A stretch of 60,030 nt of DNA, taken from assembly GCF_003334785.1 (NCBI RefSeq), contig NZ_QOWV01000021.1; one strand, written 5' to 3'. The notes beneath the pieces were generated by a model. It was not told the DNA's origin. It made no database searches and saw nothing but the letters and a program-made list of their open reading frames with translations. This document shows positions 9,383 through 21,813 of the stretch, piece after piece. The stretch's first letter is position 1; the number at the start of each line of letters is the position of its first letter. The translations under genes were made by a program, and so were the position numbers. This DNA comes from Escherichia coli (GTDB taxonomy: Bacteria > Pseudomonadota > Gammaproteobacteria > Enterobacterales > Enterobacteriaceae).

Positions 9383-10606
9383 TCAATGCGCATGGGTAGC
9401 ACTTTCAGAGCGCATCCGCTCCAGTGCGCCAGAAATATTGGCTTCGGAATCAATCAGGAACAGGCCGCTGGAAACCACCTTTTCACCTTCCGCCAGACCA
9501 GAGCGTAATGCGGTGACACCTTGCGATGCCTGGAAAACGGCAACGCGTTTCGGTACAAAGCGCCCGTCAGCATCAACGGTAATCACCCGCTGTTCGTTGC
9601 CGGTATCAATCAGCGCCTGTGACGGAATGAGCAGCATCGGTTCGCTGGCGGTATTGAGTTGCAACCAGGCGTTCATGCCTGGTTTTAGCGCCTCGTCGGC
9701 GTTGTCGACTTCCAGACGCAGTTGTAGCGTGCGGGTCGCGGCATCCACGCCGGGTAGCAGGGTCCATTTGCGGATGGTGAGTGTTTTATCAGGTCGCGCC
9801 GGAACGGTGAGCGTAAACTGCGAGGCATCTTTCACCAGCCAGGCGATGGACTCCGGGATCGCAGCAGTGACCCACACCGGGTCCATACCCTGAATTTTCG
9901 CGACCACGTTATCTTTGGCGATATTCATTCCCGCGCGCAGATCAAACGCGGTGATCACGCCATCAATGGGCGCTTTGAGCGTAAAGCGAGTCTGGATTTT
10001 TTGCGTGGCGATCAGGCGGCGAATATCCGCCTCCGGCATTCCCGCCAGTCGCAGCCGCTCAAGAATGCCTTCAGTCTGGGTCGCCGTACCGCCGGTTTCG
10101 CGCAGCAGTAAATACTCACTCTGCGCTTCCACCCAGTCGGGAATGGTCAGGTCGAGAAGCGGTGTGCCCTTTTGCACTTTATCGCCCACGGTAAGCGGAT
10201 ACACCTTGTCGATAAACCCGGCAGCGCGAGCCTGCACAATGGCATACTGATACTCGTTGTAACTGACATTCGCCGGGAAACTCTGGGCAAAAGTCAGCGG
10301 CCCGCGCGTGACGGTAGCCGTTTTCACCCCCAGATTCTGCGTCTGAGTCGGGTCAATGCGCACACCAGACGCAGAACTCTCTTCATCGGCATATTTCGGC
10401 ACCAGATCCATATCCATAAACGGCGATTTACCTGGTTTATCGAACCGCGTATTGGGATACATCGGGTCGTACCAGAATAAGACTTTACGTTCTGCGGTCG
10501 ACGTTTTTTCTGCGGGCGGTTCAGCCTTTGCAAACCAGTTAAAACCTGCCGCAGAAATAATACCGCCCGCGATCATGCTGCCGATAATAAGCGCGATTTT
10601 TTTCAT
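9383..10606 (-). CDS. cusB: periplasmic adaptor (membrane fusion protein) of Cus efflux system
   Basis: 407 aa, N-terminal signal/anchor, MFP-like; immediately upstream of cusA. Confidence 0.93.
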   Translation of the reverse strand: MKKIALIIGSMIAGGIISAAGFNWFAKAEPPAEKTSTAERKVLFWYDPMYPNTRFDKPGKSPFMDMDLVPKYADEESSASGVRIDPTQTQNLGVKTATVTRGPLTFAQSFPANVSYNEYQYAIVQARAAGFIDKVYPLTVGDKVQKGTPLLDLTIPDWVEAQSEYLLLRETGGTATQTEGILERLRLAGMPEADIRRLIATQKIQTRFTLKAPIDGVITAFDLRAGMNIAKDNVVAKIQGMDPVWVTAAIPESIAWLVKDASQFTLTVPARPDKTLTIRKWTLLPGVDAATRTLQLRLEVDNADEALKPGMNAWLQLNTASEPMLLIPSQALIDTGNEQRVITVDADGRFVPKRVAVFQASQGVTALRSGLAEGEKVVSSGLFLIDSEANISGALERMRSESATHAH

Positions 10607-10621
10607 ATCATTAAACCTGGG

Positions 10622-10954
10622 TTACTGGCTGACTTTAATATCCTGTAATAAAGAAAGGTTGCCCTGCTGGACAAAATTAAACGCCACTTTGTCGCCGGTT
10701 TTAATTTCACTCATTTTCGTCTGCGGGGTGATGGTAAAGCGCATGGTCATCTCCGGCCAGTTCACGGCAGCAATCGGATCGTGATGGATGGTGATTTTTT
10801 TGCTTTCCAGATCAACACCTTTTACCACGCCAGTGGCGCTAATAACCTGCGGTTGTACTTCGCTCATGGTTTCATGATGATGTTCGTTAGCCTGGGCATT
10901 AAAGCCAATAACGGTAAACAGACTGAACATTGCGACTTGCAGTGCTTTTTTCAT
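10622..10954 (-). CDS. cusF: periplasmic Cu(I)/Ag(I) metallochaperone
   Basis: 110 aa with signal peptide and His/Met-rich segment (NEHHHETMSEVQ), small beta-barrel type. Confidence 0.92.
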   Translation of the reverse strand: MKKALQVAMFSLFTVIGFNAQANEHHHETMSEVQPQVISATGVVKGVDLESKKITIHHDPIAAVNWPEMTMRFTITPQTKMSEIKTGDKVAFNFVQQGNLSLLQDIKVSQ

Positions 10955-10980
10955 TTATTCTCTCCTGGAGTTAAAAATTA

Positions 10981-12360
10981 CTACTGCCAACCGCCACCAA
11001 GTGCGGTATATAAAGAAATTTCGTTGACCTGACGGGCATAATTCAGGTCAAGTAAGGTTTGTCGGGTTGCAAATAAAGAACGCTCGGCATCCAGCACTTC
11101 CAGATAACTTACCGCGCCGTGCTGATATAATGCCCGCGCCCGTTGCAAAGTAATTTGCAGCGACGCCAGATAACGCTGCTGGGCGCTGATTTGATCGTTC
11201 AGGCTTTGACGTAATGCCAGCGCATCTGCCACTTCTTTAAAGGCGTTCTGGATTTTCTGTTCATAATTCACTACCGACTGCTGCTGGCGAATTTCGGCGA
11301 TATCCAGATTGGCCTGGTTGCGTCCGGCATTAAAAATGGGGATCTCAATTTTGGGTATAAAATTCCACATCCCGCTGCTGGCGTTAAATAATGACGACAG
11401 ATCGCTGCTGGCGGTCGATATTCCGCTGGTCAGGCTGATAGACGGGAAAAATGCCGCACGCGCAGCACCAATATTGGCATTAGCCGCCATTAACGCGTGT
11501 TCAGCTTCCATAATATCCGGGCGCTGCAATAAGATTTGCGACGACAAGCCCGCCGGTAATTTAACGCTTTGCAGACTGTCGCTGTTTACTGTCTGCGCTT
11601 GCGGCAGCTTGCCGTAGCTTCCCAATAACAGTTGCAATGCATTATTCGCCTGCGCCAGTTCCCCCTGACGTTTAGCGATGTCACTGCGGGTACTTTCTAT
11701 CACCCCGCGAGCCTGTTCCAGCGCCAGAACATTGCTGCTACCGGTCAACAGTTGTTTTTCGACAAACGCATATGACTGCTGATAATTACGCAGCGTTTCT
11801 TCGGCTATTTGCAATTGCGCATACGCCAGTTGCTGATTGAAATAGCTTTGCGCGACATTAGAAACCAGCAGAATATGCACCGCGCGCTGAGCTTCCTCAG
11901 TGGCTAAATAATTTTGTCGCTCGGCTTCGCTCATGTTCTTTAAGCGACCGAAAAAATCGAGGTCAAGGCTGGCGTTAAGGCCGGTCGAAAACTCCCGTGT
12001 CGTGGCGGTATTCCCTTTAAGATTACCGCTCCAGCTGCCGCTGCCCTCGCCATTGAGCTGTGGGTAGCGGTCGGCATCAGTCAGACGATATTGCGCCCGT
12101 GCCTCCTGCACTTTCAGCGTCGCCATGCGCAAATCCCGGTTATTCACCAGCGCCTCGCTAATCAGCGTCTTCACCTGATTATCAACAAAAAAGGTGCGCC
12201 AGCCCGCGTTCTGATAGTTATCTGCTGCGTTAACGAGGCCGTTCTGGCTGAGTGAGAACTGCTGCGGTACGGGCATTGCCGGGCGCTGATAATCCGGTGC
12301 CAGTGAACAACCGGTTAGCGCAAGGGCCACACAAAATGGCAGAAGTTTACAAGGAGACAT
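10981..12360 (-). CDS. cusC: outer-membrane factor lipoprotein of Cus efflux system
   Basis: 459 aa; lipobox LTGC near N-terminus; TolC-like OMF. Confidence 0.93.
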   Translation of the reverse strand: MSPCKLLPFCVALALTGCSLAPDYQRPAMPVPQQFSLSQNGLVNAADNYQNAGWRTFFVDNQVKTLISEALVNNRDLRMATLKVQEARAQYRLTDADRYPQLNGEGSGSWSGNLKGNTATTREFSTGLNASLDLDFFGRLKNMSEAERQNYLATEEAQRAVHILLVSNVAQSYFNQQLAYAQLQIAEETLRNYQQSYAFVEKQLLTGSSNVLALEQARGVIESTRSDIAKRQGELAQANNALQLLLGSYGKLPQAQTVNSDSLQSVKLPAGLSSQILLQRPDIMEAEHALMAANANIGAARAAFFPSISLTSGISTASSDLSSLFNASSGMWNFIPKIEIPIFNAGRNQANLDIAEIRQQQSVVNYEQKIQNAFKEVADALALRQSLNDQISAQQRYLASLQITLQRARALYQHGAVSYLEVLDAERSLFATRQTLLDLNYARQVNEISLYTALGGGWQ

Positions 12361-12429
12361 AGGCTCATAATTTCTGGTGATTTTATGCCGCCAACTTTAC
12401 TCGCCAGCCTCTGATTTTCCGGTGACAGG

Positions 12430-12451
12430 AAAATGACAAAATTGTCATTTT
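12430..12451. promoter_or_regulatory. CusR box: perfect palindrome AAAATGACAA-AA-TTGTCATTTT in the cusC/cusR divergent intergenic region
   Basis: Inverted repeat read directly from sequence; matches the known CusR operator between cusC and cusR. Confidence 0.85.
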
Positions 12452-12516
12452 GCCAATAAGCGATTGCCATCTGATCCCGCTACTCTAGAATTGCCCGGGC
12501 AACATGTGGAGGAAAT

Positions 12517-13200
12517 ATGAAACTGCTGATTGTCGAAGATGAAAAGAAAACCGGAGAATACTTGACCAAAGGGTTAACCGAAGCCGGTTTTGTGGTCGAT
12601 TTGGCCGACAACGGGCTGAATGGCTACCATCTGGCGATGACCGGAGATTATGACCTGATAATCCTCGATATTATGCTGCCGGACGTGAACGGCTGGGATA
12701 TCGTGCGCATGTTGCGCTCCGCCAATAAAGGGATGCCGATTCTGTTGCTTACCGCGCTTGGCACCATTGAACATCGCGTCAAGGGGCTGGAGTTGGGGGC
12801 CGATGACTATCTGGTGAAGCCGTTCGCTTTTGCTGAACTGCTGGCGCGGGTGCGCACTCTCCTGCGGCGCGGGGCGGCGGTGATTATCGAAAGTCAGTTT
12901 CAGGTTGCCGATCTGATGGTCGATCTCGTCAGCCGCAAAGTCACCCGCAGCGGCACGCGCATCACTCTGACCAGTAAAGAATTTACTCTGCTGGAGTTTT
13001 TCCTTCGCCATCAGGGCGAAGTGCTGCCCCGCTCGCTTATCGCCTCGCAGGTATGGGACATGAATTTCGACAGCGACACTAACGCCATTGATGTGGCGGT
13101 GAAGCGGCTACGCGGCAAAATCGACAACGACTTTGAGCCGAAGCTGATTCAAACCGTGCGCGGCGTGGGTTACATGCTTGAGGTGCCGGATGGTCAGTAA
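12517..13200 (+). CDS. cusR: OmpR-family response regulator for copper/silver
   Basis: 227 aa; receiver domain ([11 protein letters not shown]...) plus winged-helix output. Confidence 0.93.
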
Positions 13201-14632
13201 GCCATTTCAGCGCCCGTTTTCGCTGGCAACCCGCCTGACCTTTTTTATCAGCCTGGCCACCATCGCGGCGTTTTTCGCCTTTGCATGGATCATGATCCAC
13301 TCAGTAAAAGTGCATTTTGCCGAGCAGGATATTAATGATTTAAAAGAGATTAGCGCCACCCTTGAACGGGTACTAAATCACCCTGACGAAACGCAAGCCC
13401 GACGCTTAATGACGCTGGAAGATATCGTCAGTGGTTATTCCAATGTGTTGATTTCCCTGGCAGATAGTCAGGGTAAAACGGTGTATCACTCCCCCGGTGC
13501 GCCCGATATCCGCGAGTTTACGCGTGACGCCATACCCGATAAAGACGCGCGGGGCGGCGAGGTGTATCTCCTTTCCGGCCCGACGATTATGATGCCAGGG
13601 CACGGTCACGGGCATATGGAACACAGCAACTGGCGGATGATTAACTTACCGGTTGGCCCGCTGGTTGACGGCAAACCGATTTATACGCTCTACATCGCGC
13701 TTTCGATCGATTTTCATCTTCATTACATAAATGATTTGATGAATAAACTTATTATGACCGCATCGGTAATCAGCATCCTGATCGTCTTTATCGTGCTGTT
13801 GGCGGTACATAAAGGTCACGCGCCGATCCGCAGCGTCAGCCGTCAAATCCAGAATATTACCTCGAAAGATCTCGACGTTCGCCTTGACCCGCAGACCGTG
13901 CCCATTGAGCTGGAACAGCTGGTACTGTCGTTCAACCATATGATCGAGCGTATTGAGGATGTCTTTACCCGCCAGTCCAATTTCTCAGCGGATATCGCTC
14001 ACGAAATTCGCACACCAATTACGAATCTCATAACGCAAACCGAAATCGCCCTCAGCCAGTCGCGCAGCCAGAAGGAGCTGGAAGATGTGCTCTACTCTAA
14101 TCTCGAAGAGCTGACGCGAATGGCGAAAATGGTCAGCGATATGCTGTTTCTCGCTCAGGCCGATAACAACCAGCTAATCCCCGAAAAGAAAATGCTCAAC
14201 CTGGCGGATGAAGTCGGCAAAGTGTTCGATTTTTTCGAGGCGTTAGCGGAAGATCGCGGCGTGGAGTTGCGGTTTGTTGGCGACAAGTGTCAGGTCGCGG
14301 GCGATCCGCTGATGCTGCGTCGGGCGCTAAGCAACCTGCTTTCGAACGCCCTGCGTTATACGCCAACCGGAGAGACAATTGTAGTGCGCTGTCAGACGGT
14401 CGATCACCTGGTGCAAGTTATCGTCGAAAACCCCGGTACGCCCATTGCGCCCGAGCACTTACCGCGATTGTTTGACCGTTTCTATCGCGTTGACCCCTCC
14501 CGCCAGCGAAAAGGTGAAGGTAGCGGTATTGGCCTGGCGATAGTGAAATCGATTGTTGTCGCGCATAAAGGCACGGTTGCGGTAACGTCGGATGCGCGGG
14601 GGACAAGGTTTGTTATCACATTACCCGCTTAA
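13190..14632 (+). CDS. cusS: sensor histidine kinase for copper/silver
   Basis: ATG at 13190 overlaps the cusR stop; [19 protein letters not shown]..., two TM segments, H-box [10 protein letters not shown], ATPase motifs. Confidence 0.92.
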
Positions 14633-14781: not shown

Positions 14782-17019
14782 GTGGACTGGCTTCTTGATG
14801 TTTTTGCTACCTGGCTCTACGGCTTAAAAGTAATCGCGATAACGTTAGCGGTCATCATGTTCATCAGCGGGCTGGACGATTTTTTTATTGATGTCGTCTA
14901 CTGGGTACGCCGCATTAAACGCAAGTTGAGTGTTTATCGCCGCTACCCGCGAATGAGTTACCGCGAACTGTATAAACCAGATGAAAAACCGTTAGCGATT
15001 ATGGTTCCGGCGTGGAATGAAACGGGCGTCATCGGCAATATGGCCGAGCTGGCGGCGACCACGCTCGACTACGAAAACTATCATATCTTTGTTGGCACCT
15101 ACCCCAACGCCCCCGATACTCAGCGTGATGTTGACGAAGTGTGCGCTCGCTTCCCGAATGTGCATAAGGTAGTCTGCGCGCGTCCTGGCCCCACCAGCAA
15201 AGCCGACTGTCTGAACAACGTGCTGGACGCCATCACCCAATTTGAGCGTAGCGCCAATTTCGCTTTTGCTGGTTTTATTCTGCATGACGCCGAAGATGTG
15301 ATTTCACCGATGGAATTGCGTCTGTTCAACTATCTGGTCGAGCGTAAAGATCTGATTCAGATCCCGGTGTATCCGTTCGAACGCGAATGGACGCACTTCA
15401 CCAGCATGACTTACATTGATGAGTTTTCAGAGCTGCATGGCAAAGATGTTCCGGTGCGTGAAGCCCTCGCCGGACAAGTGCCCAGCGCAGGCGTCGGCAC
15501 CTGTTTCAGCCGCCGCGCCGTGACCGCACTGTTAGCTGACGGTGACGGTATTGCTTTCGACGTGCAGAGTCTTACTGAAGATTACGACATTGGCTTCCGC
15601 CTGAAAGAAAAAGGTATGACGGAAATTTTTGTCCGTTTTCCGGTGGTGGACGAAGCCAAAGAACGCGAGCAGCGTAAATTTTTACAGCACGCGCGGACAT
15701 CAAACATGATCTGCGTGCGCGAATATTTCCCCGATACCTTTTCGACTGCGGTTCGACAAAAATCCCGCTGGATCATCGGCATTGTTTTCCAAGGCTTTAA
15801 AACCCATAAATGGACCTCCAGCCTGACGCTGAACTACTTTCTCTGGCGCGACCGCAAAGGGGCAATCAGTAACTTTGTCAGCTTCCTCGCGATGCTGGTG
15901 ATGATCCAGCTTTTGCTGTTGCTGGCGTATGAAAGTTTGTGGCCCGATGCCTGGCATTTCCTTTCTATTTTCAGCGGCAGCGCATGGTTAATGACCCTGC
16001 TGTGGCTAAACTTTGGTTTGATGGTTAACCGCATCGTGCAGCGGGTGATTTTCGTTACTGGCTACTACGGCCTGACGCAGGGGCTGCTTTCCGTCCTGCG
16101 TCTTTTCTGGGGCAACCTGATTAACTTCATGGCCAACTGGCGCGCGCTAAAACAGGTACTTCAACACGGCGATCCACGTCGCGTGGCGTGGGATAAAACA
16201 ACGCATGACTTCCCCAGCGTGACTGGCGATACCCGCTCGTTGCGCCCGTTAGGTCAAATTCTGCTGGAAAATCAGGTCATCACTGAAGAACAACTCGATA
16301 CAGCACTGCGTAATCGCGTCGAAGGTCTACGCCTGGGCGGTTCAATGCTGATGCAGGGGCTGATTAGCGCCGAGCAGCTGGCACAGGCGCTGGCAGAGCA
16401 AAACGGCGTGGCGTGGGAATCCATCGATGCCTGGCAGATCCCTTCCTCGCTGATTGCCGAAATGCCGGCCTCCGTGGCGCTGCATTATGCGGTACTGCCG
16501 CTGCGTCTGGAAAATGACGAGTTAATTGTCGGCAGTGAAGATGGTATTGACCCGGTTTCGCTGGCGGCCCTGACGCGTAAAGTCGGACGCAAAGTGCGTT
16601 ACGTCATTGTTCTGCGGGGACAAATTGTCACAGGGTTACGTCACTGGTATGCACGCCGACGCGGTCACGATCCGCGGGCAATGTTGTACAATGCGGTTCA
16701 GCATCAGTGGCTCACGGAACAGCAGGCCGGTGAAATCTGGCGGCAATATGTGCCGCATCAGTTCCTGTTCGCCGAAATACTGACCACGCTCGGTCATATT
16801 AATCGTTCAGCAATTAACGTGTTGTTATTGCGCCATGAACGCAGTTCTCTGCCGCTCGGCAAGTTTTTGGTCACCGAAGGCGTTATCAGCCAGGAAACGT
16901 TGGATCGCGTCCTGACAATTCAACGCGAATTACAAGTTTCGATGCAATCACTATTACTCAAAGCAGGTTTAAACACAGAACAGGTTGCGCAACTGGAGTC
17001 CGAAAATGAAGGAGAATAA
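14782..17019 (+). CDS. nfrB: inner-membrane family-2 glycosyltransferase with C-terminal MshEN-like repeats (phage N4 adsorption protein B)
   Basis: 745 aa, GTG start; N-terminal TM, glycosyltransferase core (DAEDV motif), two C-terminal GSPII-E-N/MshEN-like segments. Confidence 0.9.
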   Translation: MDWLLDVFATWLYGLKVIAITLAVIMFISGLDDFFIDVVYWVRRIKRKLSVYRRYPRMSYRELYKPDEKPLAIMVPAWNETGVIGNMAELAATTLDYENYHIFVGTYPNAPDTQRDVDEVCARFPNVHKVVCARPGPTSKADCLNNVLDAITQFERSANFAFAGFILHDAEDVISPMELRLFNYLVERKDLIQIPVYPFEREWTHFTSMTYIDEFSELHGKDVPVREALAGQVPSAGVGTCFSRRAVTALLADGDGIAFDVQSLTEDYDIGFRLKEKGMTEIFVRFPVVDEAKEREQRKFLQHARTSNMICVREYFPDTFSTAVRQKSRWIIGIVFQGFKTHKWTSSLTLNYFLWRDRKGAISNFVSFLAMLVMIQLLLLLAYESLWPDAWHFLSIFSGSAWLMTLLWLNFGLMVNRIVQRVIFVTGYYGLTQGLLSVLRLFWGNLINFMANWRALKQVLQHGDPRRVAWDKTTHDFPSVTGDTRSLRPLGQILLENQVITEEQLDTALRNRVEGLRLGGSMLMQGLISAEQLAQALAEQNGVAWESIDAWQIPSSLIAEMPASVALHYAVLPLRLENDELIVGSEDGIDPVSLAALTRKVGRKVRYVIVLRGQIVTGLRHWYARRRGHDPRAMLYNAVQHQWLTEQQAGEIWRQYVPHQFLFAEILTTLGHINRSAINVLLLRHERSSLPLGKFLVTEGVISQETLDRVLTIQRELQVSMQSLLLKAGLNTEQVAQLESENEGE

Positions 17020-19978
17020 CCTTAATCGCGTCATCGGATGGTCTGGTTTACTGCTGACGTCTTTATTGAGTACCAGCGCACTCGCAGACAATATCGGCAC
17101 CAGCGCAGAAGAGCTGGGGCTGAGCGATTATCGCCATTTTGTTATTTATCCCCGTCTCGATAAAGCGCTGAAGGCACAGAAAAATAACGACGAAGCAACC
17201 GCCATCCGCGAATTTGAATATATACACCAGCAGGTGCCGGATAATATTCCGCTGACTTTATACCTTGCGGAAGCCTATCGCCATTTTGGTCATGATGACC
17301 GGGCGCGGCTGTTGCTTGAGGATCAACTGAAACGTCACCCAGGAGATGCCCGACTTGAGCGCAGTCTGGCGGCTATTCCGGTTGAAGTGAAAAGCGTTAC
17401 GACAGTTGAAGAACTGCTTGCCCAGCAAAAAGCGTGCGATGCTGCGCCGACCCTGCGTTGTCGCAGTGAAGTCGGGCAGAATGCCCTGCGGCTGGCACAG
17501 TTACCTGTCGCCAGAGCGCAACTGAACGATGCGACGTTTGCTGCATCGCCGGAAGGAAAAACGCTGCGAACCGATCTGCTGCAACGGGCAATCTACCTGA
17601 AACAATGGTCCCAGGCAGATACGCTATACAATGAAGCACGCCAGCAGAACACATTAAGCGCGGCAGAACGCCGTCAGTGGTTTGACGTGCTTCTTGCCGG
17701 GCAGCTGGACGATCGGATCCTGGCACTGCAATCACAGGGGATCTTCACCGATCCTCAGTCATATATTACTTACGCGACCGCGCTGGCTTATCGTGGCGAA
17801 AAAGCACGCCTCCAGCATTATCTCATTGAAAATAAGCCACTATTTACCACGGACGCACAAGAGAAAAGTTGGCTCTATCTGTTATCTAAATACAGCGCTA
17901 ACCCCGTTCAGGCGTTGGCGAATTATACGGTACAGTTTGCCGACAACCGCCAGTATGTTGTTGGCGCGACGCTACCGGTGCTGTTAAAAGAAGGTCAGTA
18001 CGACGCAGCGCAAAAACTGCTCGCCACCCTCCCCGCCAATGAAATGCTTGAGGAGCGTTATGCTGTCAGCGTGGCGACCCGTAACAAGGCTGAAGCTCTG
18101 CGTCTGGCACGATTGCTGTATCAGCAAGAACCGGCAAATCTTACCCGCCTGGATCAACTAACCTGGCAACTGATGCAGAACGAGCAGTCACGCGAAGCTG
18201 CCGATTTATTGCTGCAACGCTATCCTTTCCAGGGCGATGCGCGTGTCAGCCAGACTTTAATGGCGCGACTGGCGTCTCTGCTGGAAAGTCATCCTTACCT
18301 GGCAACGCCGGCGAAGGTGGCGATTTTATCGAAACCCTTACCGCTGGCGGAGCAACGTCAGTGGCAAAGTCAGTTGCCGGGTATTGCAGATAATTGCCCG
18401 GCAATAGTTCGCTTGCTGGGCGATATGTCGCCTTCCTACGATGCCGCCGCCTGGAACCGTCTGGCAAAGTGTTATCGGGACACGCTAACCGGTGTGGCGT
18501 TGTATGCATGGCTTCAGGCCGAACAACGACAACCGAGCGCCTGGCAACATCGTGCGGTAGCCTATCAGGCGTATCAGGTTGAGGACTACGCCACCGCACT
18601 GGCGGCCTGGCAGAAAATCAGTCTTCACGACATGAGCAATGAGGATCTGCTTGCTGCTGCCAATACCGCCCAGGCGGCAGGAAATGGTGCGGCTCGCGAT
18701 CGCTGGCTACAACAGGCAGAAAAACGTGGACTGGGAAGCAATGCCCTCTACTGGTGGCTGCATGCGCAACGTTACATTCCTGGTCAGCCGGAACTCGCAC
18801 TGAACGATCTCACGCGCTCAATCAATATTGCGCCTTCTGCCAACGCTTACGTTGCGCGGGCGACAATTTATCGCCAACGTCATAATGTCCCGGCCGCGGT
18901 GAGTGATTTGCGCGCCGCGCTGGAACTGGAACCGAATAATAGCAACACCCAGGCAGCGCTTGGTTACGCCTTGTGGGATAGCGGTGATATCGCACAGTCG
19001 CGGGAAATGCTCGAACCGGCGCATAAAGGGCTTCCGGACGATCCGGCACTGATCCGACAACTGGCCTACGTGAACCAGCGTCTGGATGACATGCCTGCGA
19101 CGCAGCACTACGCCCGGCTGGTGATTGATGACATTGATAATCAGGCGCTGATAACCCCACTGACCCCAGAACAAAATCAACAACGCTTCAATTTCCGCCG
19201 TTTGCATGAGGAGGTCGGTCGCCGCTGGACGTTCAGTTTCGATTCTTCCATCGGCTTGCGTTCCGGCGCAATGAGTACCGCTAACAATAATGTCGGCGGC
19301 GCAGCGCCAGGGAAAAGCTATCGTAGCTACGGACAACTGGAAGCCGAGTACCGCATCGGACGCAATATGCTGCTGGAAGGCGACCTGCTCTCAGTTTATA
19401 GCCGCGTCTTTGCCGATACCGGAGAAAACGGGGTGATGATGCCGGTGAAAAATCCGATGTCCGGCACCGGTCTGCGCTGGAAGCCGCTGCGCGATCAGAT
19501 CTTTTTCATCGCCGTCGAACAGCAGTTGCCGCTGAACGGCCAAAATGGCGCATCCGATACCATGCTGCGCGCCAGCGCCTCATTCTTTAATGGCGGCAAA
19601 TACAGCGACGAATGGCACCCGAACGGTTCAGGCTGGTTTGCCCAAAACCTGTACCTCGATGCGGCGCAATATATCCGCCAGGATATTCAGGCGTGGACGG
19701 CAGATTATCGCGTCAGCTGGCATCAGAAGGTAGCTAACGGACAGACTATTGAGCCTTACGCTCACGTTCAGGACAACGGCTATCGTGATAAAGGCACTCA
19801 GGGCGCGCAGCTTGGCGGAGTCGGGGTCCGCTGGAATATCTGGACCGGCGAGACGCACTACGACGCCTGGCCGCACAAAGTCAGTCTCGGCGTCGAGTAT
19901 CAACATACCTTTAAGGCGATTAATCAACGTAACGGAGAGCGCAACAACGCGTTTCTCACCATTGGAGTGCACTGGTAA
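17006..19978 (+). CDS. nfrA: outer-membrane protein with TPR repeats (phage N4 adsorption protein A)
   Basis: ATG at 17006 (MKENNLNRVIGWSGLLLTSLLSTSALA, signal peptide), 990 aa; overlaps nfrB stop; C-terminus ends in aromatic residue typical of OM beta-barrels. Confidence 0.9.
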   Translation: MKENNLNRVIGWSGLLLTSLLSTSALADNIGTSAEELGLSDYRHFVIYPRLDKALKAQKNNDEATAIREFEYIHQQVPDNIPLTLYLAEAYRHFGHDDRARLLLEDQLKRHPGDARLERSLAAIPVEVKSVTTVEELLAQQKACDAAPTLRCRSEVGQNALRLAQLPVARAQLNDATFAASPEGKTLRTDLLQRAIYLKQWSQADTLYNEARQQNTLSAAERRQWFDVLLAGQLDDRILALQSQGIFTDPQSYITYATALAYRGEKARLQHYLIENKPLFTTDAQEKSWLYLLSKYSANPVQALANYTVQFADNRQYVVGATLPVLLKEGQYDAAQKLLATLPANEMLEERYAVSVATRNKAEALRLARLLYQQEPANLTRLDQLTWQLMQNEQSREAADLLLQRYPFQGDARVSQTLMARLASLLESHPYLATPAKVAILSKPLPLAEQRQWQSQLPGIADNCPAIVRLLGDMSPSYDAAAWNRLAKCYRDTLTGVALYAWLQAEQRQPSAWQHRAVAYQAYQVEDYATALAAWQKISLHDMSNEDLLAAANTAQAAGNGAARDRWLQQAEKRGLGSNALYWWLHAQRYIPGQPELALNDLTRSINIAPSANAYVARATIYRQRHNVPAAVSDLRAALELEPNNSNTQAALGYALWDSGDIAQSREMLEPAHKGLPDDPALIRQLAYVNQRLDDMPATQHYARLVIDDIDNQALITPLTPEQNQQRFNFRRLHEEVGRRWTFSFDSSIGLRSGAMSTANNNVGGAAPGKSYRSYGQLEAEYRIGRNMLLEGDLLSVYSRVFADTGENGVMMPVKNPMSGTGLRWKPLRDQIFFIAVEQQLPLNGQNGASDTMLRASASFFNGGKYSDEWHPNGSGWFAQNLYLDAAQYIRQDIQAWTADYRVSWHQKVANGQTIEPYAHVQDNGYRDKGTQGAQLGGVGVRWNIWTGETHYDAWPHKVSLGVEYQHTFKAINQRNGERNNAFLTIGVHW

Positions 19979-20869
19979 ATGCGTAAGTTCATTTTCGTAT
20001 TGCTGACACTGCTTTTGGTCAGCCCTTTTTCCTTTGCGATGAAAGGTATTATCTGGCAACCACAAAACCGAGATAGTCAGGTTACCGATACCCAGTGGCA
20101 GGGGCTGATGAGTCAGTTACGTTTGCAAGGCTTCGATACCCTTGTTTTGCAATGGACCCGTTACGGCGATGCATTTACCCAGCCAGAACAGCGCACGTTA
20201 TTGTTTAAGCGGGCCGCAGCTGCGCAACAGGCTGGTCTGAAGCTTATTGTCGGGCTGAACGCCGATCCGGAATTTTTTATGCACCAGAAACAGTCGTCCG
20301 CAGCGCTGGAAAGCTATCTTAATCGCCTGCTGGCTGCCGATCTCCAGCAAGCCAGATTATGGAGCGCCGCGCCTGGCATAACGCCGGATGGCTGGTACAT
20401 CAGCGCGGAAATTGACGACCTGAACTGGCGCAGCGAAGCCGCCCGTCAGCCTTTGCTAACATGGTTAAACAACGCGCAGCGGCTGATTAGCGATGTTTCA
20501 GCAAAACCGGTTTATATCAGTAGTTTTTTCGCCGGAAACATGTCGCCCGATGGCTATCGCCAACTGCTGGAACACGTTAAAGCAACCGGCGTTAATGTCT
20601 GGGTACAGGATGGCAGCGGCGTGGATAAACTGACCGCTGAACAGCGTGAACGTTATTTACAGGCCAGCGCCGATTGCCAAAGTCCCGCCCCTGCCAGCGG
20701 CGTTGTTTATGAACTTTTTGTCGCCGGCAAAGGCAAAACCTTTACAGCGAAACCGAAACCGGACGCAGAAATTGCCTCGCTGTTAGCGAAACGTTCCTCT
20801 TGCGGTAAAGACACTCTCTATTTCTCTCTGCGCTATTTGCCCGTCGCGCACGGCATTCTCGAGTATTAA
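19979..20869 (+). CDS. ybcH: periplasmic protein YbcH (third gene of nfrB-nfrA-ybcH unit)
   Basis: 296 aa with signal peptide (MRKFIFVLLTLLLVSPFSFA); ATG immediately follows the nfrA stop (TAAATG). Confidence 0.85.
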   Translation: MRKFIFVLLTLLLVSPFSFAMKGIIWQPQNRDSQVTDTQWQGLMSQLRLQGFDTLVLQWTRYGDAFTQPEQRTLLFKRAAAAQQAGLKLIVGLNADPEFFMHQKQSSAALESYLNRLLAADLQQARLWSAAPGITPDGWYISAEIDDLNWRSEAARQPLLTWLNNAQRLISDVSAKPVYISSFFAGNMSPDGYRQLLEHVKATGVNVWVQDGSGVDKLTAEQRERYLQASADCQSPAPASGVVYELFVAGKGKTFTAKPKPDAEIASLLAKRSSCGKDTLYFSLRYLPVAHGILEY

Positions 20870-21051: not shown

Positions 21052-21813
21052 ATGCAATTGAGCAGCAGTGAACCTTGCGTGGTGATCCTGACCGAAAAAG
21101 AGGTAGAGGTAAGCGTCAATAACCATGCTACGTTTACCCTTCCGAAAAACTACCTGGCCGCCTTCGCGTGCAACAATAACGTCATTGAACTCTCAACGTT
21201 AAATCACGTATTAATCACCCACATCAACCGTAACATCATCAACGATTATCTGTTGTTTTTAAATAAGAACTTAACCTGTGTAAAGCCCTGGTCGCGGCTG
21301 GCAACCCCGGTTATCGCTTGTCATAGCCGTACACCGGAAGTGTTCCGGCTAGCCGCCAACCACAGCAAGCAGCAACCCAGCAGACCCTGCGAAGCGGAGT
21401 TGACGCGCGCATTGCTTTTTACCGTATTGTCTAACTTTCTTGAGCAATCGCGGTTTATTGCCCTACTGATGTATATCTTACGCAGCAGCGTCCGCGACAG
21501 CGTCTGCCGCATTATTCAAAGCGATATTCAGCATTACTGGAATCTGCGAATTGTCGCCAGTTCGCTATGTTTAAGCCCCAGCCTGCTCAAAAAGAAATTA
21601 AAAAACGAAAATACCAGCTATAGCCAGATTGTCACAGAGTGTCGTATGCGTTACGCCGTACAGATGTTATTGATGGATAACAAAAATATCACTCAGGTGG
21701 CGCAATTATGTGGCTATAGCAGCACGTCGTACTTTATCTCTGTTTTTAAGGCGTTTTACGGCCTGACACCGTTGAATTATCTCGCCAAACAGCGACAAAA
21801 AGTGATGTGGTGA
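21052..21813 (+). CDS. envY: AraC-family transcriptional regulator
   Basis: 253 aa, C-terminal AraC HTH (YSSTSYFISVFKAFYGLTPLNY); visibly AT-rich gene. Confidence 0.85.
   Translation: MQLSSSEPCVVILTEKEVEVSVNNHATFTLPKNYLAAFACNNNVIELSTLNHVLITHINRNIINDYLLFLNKNLTCVKPWSRLATPVIACHSRTPEVFRLAANHSKQQPSRPCEAELTRALLFTVLSNFLEQSRFIALLMYILRSSVRDSVCRIIQSDIQHYWNLRIVASSLCLSPSLLKKKLKNENTSYSQIVTECRMRYAVQMLLMDNKNITQVAQLCGYSSTSYFISVFKAFYGLTPLNYLAKQRQKVMW

Follow-up and report, generated by a model that had tools for sequence, protein, structure and literature searches.

Residues 631-744 of the Escherichia coli glycosyltransferase NfrB, about 115 residues at its C-terminus, form an internal, diverged duplication of the MshEN_N helix-hairpin with four units (a to d), which follows one complete MshEN domain. 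The original prediction was that two similar segments at the C-terminus of NfrB represent tandem MshEN-type (GSPII-E N-terminal) domains that place a polysaccharide synthase under second-messenger control. The functional part of this prediction is right, and our results support a different anatomy, namely one complete MshEN domain and a diverged tail of MshEN_N-type repeats only. That NfrB is controlled by c-di-GMP via an MshEN domain is already known and was published in 2021; this core point now stands in the RefSeq product name (cyclic di-3',5'-guanylate-activated glycosyltransferase), and the present analysis adds nothing to it. The increment is small and annotational: what had been a "domain of unknown function" can now be read as a set of four diverged MshEN_N hairpins, and two of these equal the true binding site in strength of conservation.

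The nfrB locus and its control by c-di-GMP

The window is the whole stretch of E. coli DNA that was analyzed (60,030 nucleotides of contig NZ_QOWV01000021.1), and the gene content reported for it includes cusRS, nfrB, nfrA, and ybcH of E. coli. The genes of the operon and the catalytic domain of NfrB are as follows.

14782-17019, plus strand: nfrB coding sequence, 745 amino acids, GTG start (open reading frame list, RefSeq match, and NCBIfam NF008411)
14989-15927, plus strand: GT2 catalytic domain, residues 70-382 (Pfam Glyco_tranf_2_3 at 70-332, E 2.4e-34; Glyco_trans_2_3 at 165-382, E 2.1e-40)
17006-19978, plus strand: nfrA, outer-membrane TPR and β-barrel export protein (RefSeq annotation under the nfrB match)
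19979-20869, plus strand: ybcH, periplasmic protein, third gene of the nfrBA-ybcH operon (296-amino-acid open reading frame with an N-terminal hydrophobic leader; operon according to PMC8669469)

The open reading frame at 14782-17019 showed 100% identity to the RefSeq protein "cyclic di-GMP-activated glycosyltransferase NfrB", and RefSeq nfrB genes from many E. coli genomes are 100% identical to it over 2238 nt; the gene was found in 5093 of 5426 complete genomes. The NfrB equivalog model NF008411 gave 1328.7 bits (curated cutoff, 1170) with residues 7-728 aligned to model positions 1-722 of 723. The context nfrB-nfrA-ybcH is present in the window with all genes on the plus strand, and the nfrA start (ATG at 17006) overlaps the nfrB stop (TAA at 17017-17019) by 14 nt, an overlap also stated for the E. 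coli nfrBA-ybcH operon (PMC8669469). The nfrA ribosome-binding site (GGAG, 16995-16998) likewise lies inside the 3' end of nfrB. An antisense or overlapping gene under 16200-17019 was also considered and rejected, as the minus strand there holds no open reading frame of at least 80 amino acids.

NfrB of E. coli K-12 (b0569; PMC8669469, PMC8669472) is encoded by this very gene, and many RefSeq genomes carry an identical sequence. The protein shares the GT2-TM-MshEN architecture, the nfrBA-ybcH operon with its 14-nt overlap, local control by DgcJ, and c-di-GMP binding through the motifs around L490/G491 and L518/G519. Purified NfrB 414-745 specifically bound c-di-GMP with a Kd of 1.0 ± 0.35 μM, plating of phage N4 was lowered by the L490A, L490/537A, and G491L substitutions, and DgcJ, which contacts NfrB, was identified as its specific cyclase (Junkermeier & Hengge, 2021, PMC8669469). 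In another study, G491L abolished N4 killing and G519S reduced it (Sellner et al., 2021, PMC8669472). These binding data and mutants substantiate the predicted second-messenger control, and the same two papers bear out by experiment that NfrB works with NfrA and YbcH on a polysaccharide needed by phage N4. The 414-745 construct spans both the motif pair of the MshEN domain (site 1) and the tail, and the main text of PMC8669469, as searched, gives its Kd without a stoichiometry, so that a second, weaker site would be compatible with the measurement. In the published accounts, residues 414-745 are either "the MshEN domain" or a small MshEN-like domain with a "domain with unknown function", the tail being labeled "domain of unknown function" by Sellner et al. 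(2021, PMC8669472). The fourfold MshEN_N hairpin repeat in 631-744 is mentioned in neither of these papers nor in Wang et al. (2016).

The complete MshEN domain and the repeat tail

Residues 489-628 show all features of an MshEN/GSPII domain, namely a motif pair, a four-helix bundle, and a subsequent α/β MshEN_C subdomain.

16246-16317, plus strand: MshEN motif I, residues 489-512, PLGQILLENQVITEEQLDTALRNR (regular-expression match and NF053729 alignment; contains the first segment of the original prediction)
16330-16401, plus strand: MshEN motif II, residues 517-540, RLGGSMLMQGLISAEQLAQALAEQ (full fit to the consensus; G519 and L537 were mutated in published work, PMC8669469 and PMC8669472)
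16405-16665, plus strand: MshEN_C α/β subdomain, residues 542-628 (Pfam PF05157, E 9.1e-14)

The motif consensus comprises 24 residues, RLGxx(L/V/I)(L/V/I)xxG(L/V/I)(L/V/I)xxxxLxxxLxxQ, in two consecutive copies with a short spacer. In E. coli NfrB, P489, Q498, and R512 depart from it, and the spacer is 4 residues long; among 40 homologs, G519 and Q540 are invariant, and position 24 of motif I is R, P, or K and never Q. Positions 1-53 of NF053729, a 53-position model of the c-di-GMP motif, align to residues 489-540, and residues 483-546 alone scored 54.7 bits against a cutoff of 38. A domain search thus returned the MshEN profile match that had been expected (Pfam, E 9e-14; NF053729, 66.4 bits), and a search of PDB sequences matched PilF, PilB, and MshE over 487-625. 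The PDB copy that was searched holds no solved structure of NfrB, and a literature search for "NfrB" over 2022-2026 returned no structural paper. An AlphaFold2 model of residues 470-745 reached a pLDDT of 91, with the strands and helices of 542-628 above 90, and its top 20 Foldseek matches were all MshEN/GSPII structures, including 5htl with c-di-GMP. The alignment covered 140 columns of MshE 5htl (TM 0.75) and likewise of PilF-GSPIIB 8pdk.

Both peptides on which the prediction was built are present in the 745-amino-acid open reading frame on the plus strand. The first, LGQILLENQVITEEQLDTAL, corresponds to residues 490-509 (16249-16308), and the second, LGKFLVTEGVISQETLDRVL, to residues 692-711 (16855-16914) within unit c. 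They are not in tandem, since they lie 202 residues apart with motif II and the α/β subdomain in between. Nor are there two complete domains: PF05157 matches once (542-628, E 9e-14), and the second segment is part of one of four MshEN_N-like hairpins that have no second α/β subdomain after them, the tail being all-helical and ending at residue 745. Because the Pfam MshEN model covers only the α/β subdomain (Wang et al., 2016, supplement) and is blind to the motif pair, Pfam is uninformative for the second segment; with the tail profile it gave only weak DUF4388 matches (best E 5e-3, 0 of 22 members at or below 1e-3). The four units start at residues 633, 662, 691, and 720, which is a period of exactly 29 residues (24 + 5).

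16678-16749, plus strand: unit a, residues 633-656, helix-hairpin that keeps the 29-residue register and carries Leu instead of the Gly required at motif position 3
16765-16836, plus strand: unit b, residues 662-685, LFAEILTTLGHINRSAINVLLLRH, makes up the first half of the MshEN_N-like b+c module (hhalign and tail profile)
16852-16923, plus strand: unit c, residues 691-714, PLGKFLVTEGVISQETLDRVLTIQ, passes the motif regular expression, best-preserved motif copy of the tail, contains the second segment
16939-17010, plus strand: unit d, residues 720-743, degenerate hairpin with SMQ instead of RLG

The similarity of the two segments is far above chance. An ungapped local alignment of 485-542 with 687-744 spans 58 residues with a BLOSUM62 score of 76, a value reached by none of 2000 shuffles (485-545 versus 686-745; mean 27.4 ± 5.4; z-score about 9), and the same query against NfrB residues 1-480 scored 26 as a control. 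The family profiles of the two regions align by hhalign with a probability of 97.3% and an E-value of 2.4e-11 in two registers, motifs I+II on b+c scoring 58. The tail-only profile matched only MshEN-type proteins among PDB sequences (PilF-GSPIIB, 2e-6; PilB, 6e-5; MshE, 4e-4), and its positions 34-89 align to both c-di-GMP motifs of PilF-GSPIIB (E 2e-6), so that the predicted resemblance of both segments to the c-di-GMP-binding N-terminal module of the MshE, PilB, and PilF ATPases is supported by these matches and by NF053729. The latter gave 46.3 bits (E 2.6e-12) on the whole tail alone, 31.1 bits (E 1.5e-7) on b+c alone (656-718), and 29.8 bits on c+d alone, the last two being below the curated cutoff of 38. 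When representative proteins were searched with the tail-only profile, 3634 were retrieved; the non-NfrB matches contain several copies, their best-matching stretch falls at profile positions 34-90 (b+c), and 8 of 8 scanned with NF053729 passed.

The segments are short helical peptides, units a and d are singly below significance (conservation 0.41 and 0.32), and Foldseek of the tail alone gave E-values of only 0.2-2, all of which would suit a chance or compositional resemblance of amphipathic Leu/Gln-rich helices. The shuffles and the background-level control, the hhalign E-value, the independently curated NF053729, the confinement of PDB matches to MshEN-type proteins, and the exact 29-residue period speak against such a resemblance, which we regard as extremely improbable; at the level of sequence comparison, these tests already refute it.

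The four units are unequally preserved. The AlphaFold2 model places helices at 631-640 and 646-659 in unit a and at 721-727 and 732-744 in unit d, and neither unit alone resembles the motif significantly in the shuffle test. Alignment of unit a to motif I by eye (R632 with R488) was not supported, as its score of 26 was reached by 300 of 2000 shuffles; unit a was assigned from its place in the 29-residue repeat and from the helices predicted for it. Of 40 homologs, 35 carry Leu at its position 3. In unit d, position 3 is variable (A8/S6/E4), the 3' half is missing in 12 of the 40, and the mean column conservation is 0.32 versus 0.57-0.59 for I+II, b, and c. Unit c, in contrast, also fits the relaxed pattern of Wang (PMC5013675), can be aligned with motif I of both PilB and MshE (E 6e-5 to 4e-4), and retains G693 in 39, L707 in 35, L711 in 34, and Q714 in 39 of the 40 homologs. 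Unit b has G24/A15 at position 3, G32 at 10, L26/F10 at 17, L35 at 21, and H18/F8/Q7 at 24.

In the model, b+c (662-714) is predicted to adopt a four-helix-bundle fold of two helix-hairpins, and over 56 columns it aligns with ligand-bound PilF-GSPIIB at 1.5 Å (Foldseek). The pairing of hairpins (b+c, or a+b and c+d) was set from the profile registers and from loop lengths in the model, in which 6 non-helical residues lie between b and c, 7 between I and II, and 3 elsewhere.

Possible ligand binding by the tail

Contact residues expected in both motifs are Arg 1, Leu 2, Gly 3, Gly 10, Leu 17, Leu 21, and Gln 24. At these positions E. coli unit b has L, F, A, G, I, L, and H, and unit c has P, L, G, G, L, L, and Q. 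Module b+c keeps the hydrophobic triads and turn glycines and lacks both Arg residues, with one Gly-to-Ala and one Gln-to-His change.

We consider the following explanation as a whole highly probable. NfrB is an inner-membrane family-2 glycosyltransferase with one complete MshEN domain in the cytoplasmic region at its C-terminus, in which the 24-residue motifs at 489-512 and 517-540 form the four-helix bundle that precedes the α/β subdomain 542-628. Published work shows that DgcJ makes c-di-GMP locally, that this c-di-GMP binds the domain at about 1 μM, and that binding is required for making the NfrA/YbcH-exported polysaccharide that serves as the receptor of phage N4. Most probably the tail binds no ligand, or binds one with low affinity, and acts as a structural and regulatory module and not as a second high-affinity receptor; it might, for example, link the GT domain, or a partner protein, to the MshEN domain. 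A non-binding tail is suggested because the stacking Arg/Lys is absent from both motifs, because in E. coli unit b the key Gly is replaced by Ala and the Gln by His, and because hairpins a and d are joined to b and c by 3-residue connections and may cover the site. Moreover, the G491L exchange, which affects site 1 only, is sufficient to abolish N4 infection, so that the tail cannot take over the role of this site. Against a non-binding tail, the functional site 1 is itself off-consensus (P489, Q498, and R512) yet binds at 1 μM, and motif deviations are thus weak predictors. Module b+c is also conserved at 0.57-0.58 among the 40 homologs versus 0.59 for I+II, a level as compatible with a selected ligand site as with a structural role, and 24 of the 40 have the canonical Gly at position 3 of unit b.

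The same evidence bears on the possibility that b+c is a second functional cyclic-dinucleotide site, so that NfrB would take up two c-di-GMP molecules, or c-di-GMP and another dinucleotide, with a two-step or cooperative threshold. The preserved triads and turn glycines (F663, I678, L682, L692, L707, and L711; G671 and G700), the near-invariant G693 and Q714, the Gly at position 3 of unit b in most homologs, conservation equal to that of site 1, and the fold match to ligand-bound PilF-GSPIIB are in its favor. Furthermore, MshEN_N of V. cholerae MshE, when isolated from the α/β subdomain, still binds c-di-GMP (0.35 μM), (MshEN_N)2 tandems are known (PMC5013675), and PilF takes two ligands via two of its three copies (PMC11731258, PMC12002112). 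However, the contact positions hold L662, A664, H685, and P691 in E. coli, b+c alone remains below both the NF053729 cutoff and the 54.7 bits of site 1, PilF GSPII-A with like deviations is a proven non-binder even with the consensus restored (PMC11731258, PMC12002112), G491L alone abolishes N4 infection (PMC8669472), and the screen for MshEN_N sites by Wang et al. (2016, supplement) listed no site in NfrB other than 481-558. We hold a second functional site to be unlikely, and give an equally low likelihood to the statement that b+c is a second, lower-affinity site or a c-di-GMP-dependent docking surface for DgcJ or another NfrB protomer. In either case, a single chain of the synthase would sense the local level of c-di-GMP with two MshEN_N modules. 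Site 1 would be necessary, and site 2 would define the threshold at which, or the cooperativity with which, the polysaccharide is made and, consequently, susceptibility to phage N4.

Comparison with related MshEN proteins

In V. cholerae MshE (PDB 5HTL; Wang et al., 2016, PMC5013675), the MshEN domain is N-terminal to a secretion ATPase, whereas that of NfrB is C-terminal to a glycosyltransferase. In NfrB motif I, P, Q, and R replace the R, G, and Q of the consensus, the spacer between motifs I and II is 4 residues in NfrB and 5 in MshE, and the NfrB tail differs from MshE in lacking the α/β subdomain and the Arg at position 1 of units b and c.

PilF of Thermus thermophilus (PDB 6F8L, 8PDK, and 9G1W; PMC11731258, PMC12002112) has three consecutive GSPII domains, A, B, and C, and is the best PDB sequence match for both NfrB modules. 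Like NfrB, it carries several copies of the MshEN motif pair in one polypeptide, and its B and C domains bind while A does not. The deviations of NfrB unit b (His at 24, Ala at 3, and no Arg at 1) are of the same kinds as those in the non-binding GSPII-A, although they are distributed differently between the two motifs. Each PilF copy is complete, with N and C subdomains, and lies upstream of the ATPase, whereas NfrB has one complete domain and then MshEN_N-type hairpins only. PilF has raised the question of how MshEN copies with and without binding activity come to differ, and NfrB is one more case for it.

Methylobacillus EpsG and Bdellovibrio Bd2402, which represent MshEN_N-only and (MshEN_N)2 tandem architectures (Wang et al., 2016, supplement), contain a 53-residue module without the α/β subdomain, sometimes in tandem. 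As in NfrB, such MshEN_N-only modules are found in polysaccharide-synthesis proteins, and the EpsG model TIGR03029 gave weak matches to both NfrB modules. In contrast to EpsG and Bd2402, NfrB has its MshEN_N-only part behind a complete MshEN domain, and this part has degenerated further, with the Gly lost from motif position 3 of units a and d.

A canonical MshEN domain and a related segment in NfrB

The original prediction described two similar segments, LGQILLENQVITEEQLDTAL (the first segment, residues 490-509) and LGKFLVTEGVISQETLDRVL (the second segment, residues 692-711), at the C-terminus of the glycosyltransferase NfrB, which is encoded together with the following genes.

14782-17019, plus strand: nfrB, 745 codons in the ORF listing, with the feature under study in its 3' third
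17006 (ATG), plus strand: nfrA, downstream of nfrB, with a 14-nt overlap with the nfrB stop
19979-20869, plus strand: ybcH, downstream of nfrA

The nfrB ORF is 100% identical over its full length to the gene annotated in RefSeq as 'cyclic di-3',5'-guanylate-activated glycosyltransferase NfrB' and scores 1328.7 bits with the NfrB equivalog model of NCBIfam (cutoff 1170). The ORF listing contains no ORF of at least 80 aa antisense to 16200-17019.

Local alignment of residues 485-545 against 686-745 gave a single ungapped 58-residue match (485-542 with 687-744) with a score of 76, which none of 2000 shuffled controls reached (27.4 ± 5.4), while 485-545 aligned with NfrB 1-480 at background score only. 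Profiles of both regions, built from 27-28 diverged NfrB homologs (30-66% identity), were matched by hhalign with a probability of 97.3% and an E value of 2.4e-11. Thus, the similarity between the two segments is real, but they are not tandem, as they stand 202 residues apart.

The 24-residue MshEN motif has the consensus RLGxx(L/V/I)(L/V/I)xxG(L/V/I)(L/V/I)xxxxLxxxLxxQ, and a pair of such motifs with a short spacer between them folds into a four-helix bundle of 53 residues, which binds one c-di-GMP (Wang et al., 2016; PMC5013675). A motif search located such a pair, hereafter I+II, in NfrB.

NfrB 489-512: MshEN motif I
NfrB 517-540: MshEN motif II

NF053729, the 53-position 'c-di-GMP_motif' model of NCBIfam, spans 489-540 from end to end (54.7 bits alone, cutoff 38). 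The Pfam MshEN model matches 542-628 only (E 9e-14); according to the supplement of Wang et al. (2016), this model represents the α/β subdomain (MshEN_C), with the binding helices outside it. The best 20 Foldseek matches of an AlphaFold2 model of 470-745 (pLDDT 91.2, pTM 0.85) were without exception MshEN/GSPII structures, among them PilF-GSPIIB with bound c-di-GMP and the c-di-GMP complex of MshE (5htl; 140 columns; TM 0.75). Taken together, the motif pair, both profile matches and the structural matches establish that NfrB has an MshEN domain that is complete and canonical, and that the first segment is its motif I.

The proposed control of NfrB by c-di-GMP is also correct and had been established experimentally before. 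In the work of Junkermeier & Hengge (PMC8669469), purified NfrB 414-745 bound c-di-GMP specifically with a Kd of 1.0±0.35 µM; plating of N4, the phage that uses the NfrB-dependent polysaccharide as receptor, fell progressively in L490A, L490/537A and G491L; GT active-site mutants were dead; and the specific cyclase was DgcJ, which binds NfrB. Independently, N4 killing was abolished by G491L and reduced by G519S (Sellner et al., PMC8669472). Others have shown that c-di-GMP from DgcJ binds the MshEN domain, and that both steps, synthesis of the polysaccharide by the GT domain and its export via NfrA and YbcH, require it. Wang et al. (2016) gave 481-558 as the sole MshEN_N site of NfrB, and the passages searched in these three papers do not mention a second motif copy; nor does the main text of PMC8669469, as searched, give a stoichiometry for the 414-745 construct. 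We found no NfrB structure in the PDB copy searched, and our literature search gave no later structural paper.

A four-hairpin array in the NfrB tail

In the AlphaFold2 model, the tail (residues 631-744) contains eight helices (631-640, 646-659, 663-669, 675-685, 692-698, 704-717, 721-727 and 732-744), predicted to form four short-helix/turn/long-helix hairpins in the style of motifs I and II. When the motif was placed on these hairpins, units a, b, c and d started at 633, 662, 691 and 720 and thus repeated exactly every 29 residues, which corresponds to the canonical spacing of 24 residues plus a 5-residue spacer, and the array ended two residues short of the stop codon. The second segment is unit c. 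By hhalign, I+II aligned at similar strength with b+c (662-714; score 58) and with c+d (score 52), as expected of a tandem array.

We then used a tail-only profile (628-745), which included none of the annotated MshEN domain. Among PDB sequences it matched MshEN-type proteins only (PilF-GSPIIB c-di-GMP domain, 2e-6; Geobacter PilB, 6e-5; MshE, 4e-4), and in the best alignments profile positions 34-89, equivalent to b+c, fell on both binding motifs. Among 1.84 billion representative proteins it gave 3634 matches at E ≤ 1e-3; the non-NfrB matches showed several stretches each, the best one nearly always at positions 34-90. All eight non-NfrB matches scanned passed NF053729 with 2-6 copies each, and for two of the eight it was the canonical motif region that aligned with NfrB-model positions 647/651-709, again b+c. 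NF053729 matched the tail alone with 46.3 bits (E 2.6e-12), and the separate pieces b+c (31.1 bits) and c+d (29.8 bits) were both significant and both below the cutoff of 38. Because the motif-like hairpins of the tail are not followed by a second α/β subdomain, the tail is MshEN_N-type in Wang's nomenclature and not a second GSPII-E N-terminal domain. Of the two MshEN domains originally proposed, one therefore stands in full, and the remainder is a four-hairpin MshEN_N-like tail. This homology adds modestly to the annotation, as it relates a region of 'unknown function' to the binding module.

Many unrelated proteins carry 6-9 consecutive MshEN_N module matches (among them P0112, P0125, P0131, P0132 and P0133), and P0125 (394 aa) and P0132 (397 aa) have six NF053729 stretches apiece at ~300 bits. 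Such long arrays look like an under-described architecture.

The nfrB gene and its surroundings

The translation signals of nfrA sit in the last nfrB codons (16995-17019), with GGAG at 16995-16998 within codons L738-E739 of unit d; the TTG at 16985 is merely the longest-ORF start. In E. coli, the poorly conserved unit d is thus constrained both as coding sequence and as ribosome-binding site, and C-terminal truncations or tags of nfrB can alter nfrA expression. From translations read by eye, we take 9383-14632, directly upstream of nfrB, to encode genes for copper/silver efflux and sensing, with cusB, cusF and cusC on the minus strand and cusR and cusS on the plus strand, the same set next to nfrB as in E. 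coli K-12, with orientation reversed. An AraC-family-like ORF (21052-21813), assigned by reading its translation, lies downstream of ybcH.

Of 5426 complete E. coli genomes, 5093 had nfrB and 333 lacked it, and coverage was below 80% in 61 more. Truncated NfrB ORFs form the sizeable clusters P0015 (185 aa; 455 member sequences, 362 contigs) and P0070 (410 aa; 56 members). Repeated inactivation of the phage-receptor pathway may lie behind these absences and truncations. Seven of eight RefSeq genomes listed among the nfrB matches write the name as 'nrfB/NrfB', apparently a slip propagated by the annotation pipeline; nrfB is an unrelated gene for the nitrite-reductase pentahaem cytochrome.

Conservation and likely role of the tail

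In 40 NfrB-family C-termini, filtered to <80% mutual identity and sharing 28-65% identity with the E. coli sequence, the mean conservation per column was 0.59 for I+II, 0.62 for MshEN_C, and 0.41, 0.57, 0.58 and 0.32 for units a, b, c and d, respectively.

Residues at key motif positions in the 40 homologs
Unit b: 1, L24/M8; 2, L26/F12; 3, G24/A15; 10, G32; 17, L26/F10; 21, L35; 24, H18/F8/Q7
Unit c: 1, P13/S13; 2, L33; 3, G39; 10, G25; 17, L35; 21, L34; 24, Q39

Position 3 of unit a is Leu in 35 of 40 homologs, and the equivalent Gly-to-Leu or Gly-to-Ile change in MshE abolishes binding (PMC5013675). Unit d varies, and 12 of the 40 homologs lack part of it. In motif I of the functional site, position 1 is P/S/A and position 24 is R/P/K; in motif II, position 1 is R/K, and all 40 homologs have Gly at position 3 and Gln at position 24. 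This combination of a relaxed first and a strict second motif is comparable to that of b+c, although unit c differs from motif II in lacking R/K at position 1. These results show that the tail arose by duplication of the MshEN_N hairpin within NfrB, and that b+c is under constraint comparable to that of the binding site. Q660 (16759-16761, a-b spacer) is invariant, and Q718 (16933-16935, c-d spacer) invariant or nearly so, in both NfrB homolog alignments, whereas the spacers of canonical MshEN motif pairs have been described as lacking conservation; the two glutamines hint at a tail-specific contact.

Could b+c be a functional second site? It has kept its hydrophobic triads and turn glycines, MshEN_N modules are able to bind in isolation (PMC5013675), and site 1 (I+II) is itself non-canonical yet binds at 1 µM (PMC8669469). 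We nevertheless consider this unlikely, and regard the tail as more probably an appendage with a structural or regulatory role than another site of high affinity, because E. coli b+c lacks either stacking Arg (L662 and P691 instead), A664 replaces the Gly whose backbone amide reads guanine, and H685 replaces the ribose- and phosphate-binding Gln. Also, 3-residue connections in the model would link hairpins a and d to b and c, and G491L alone abolished N4 infection (PMC8669472).

Residue changes like those in b+c also mark PilF GSPII-A, which fails to bind c-di-GMP even with the consensus restored, since access to its site is blocked by an extended capped helix and by contacts between the subdomains (PMC12002112). 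The kinds of change are the same in both proteins (His for Gln at position 24, Ala for Gly at position 3 and loss of the position-1 Arg), whereas their split between the two motifs of GSPII-A differs from that in NfrB b+c.
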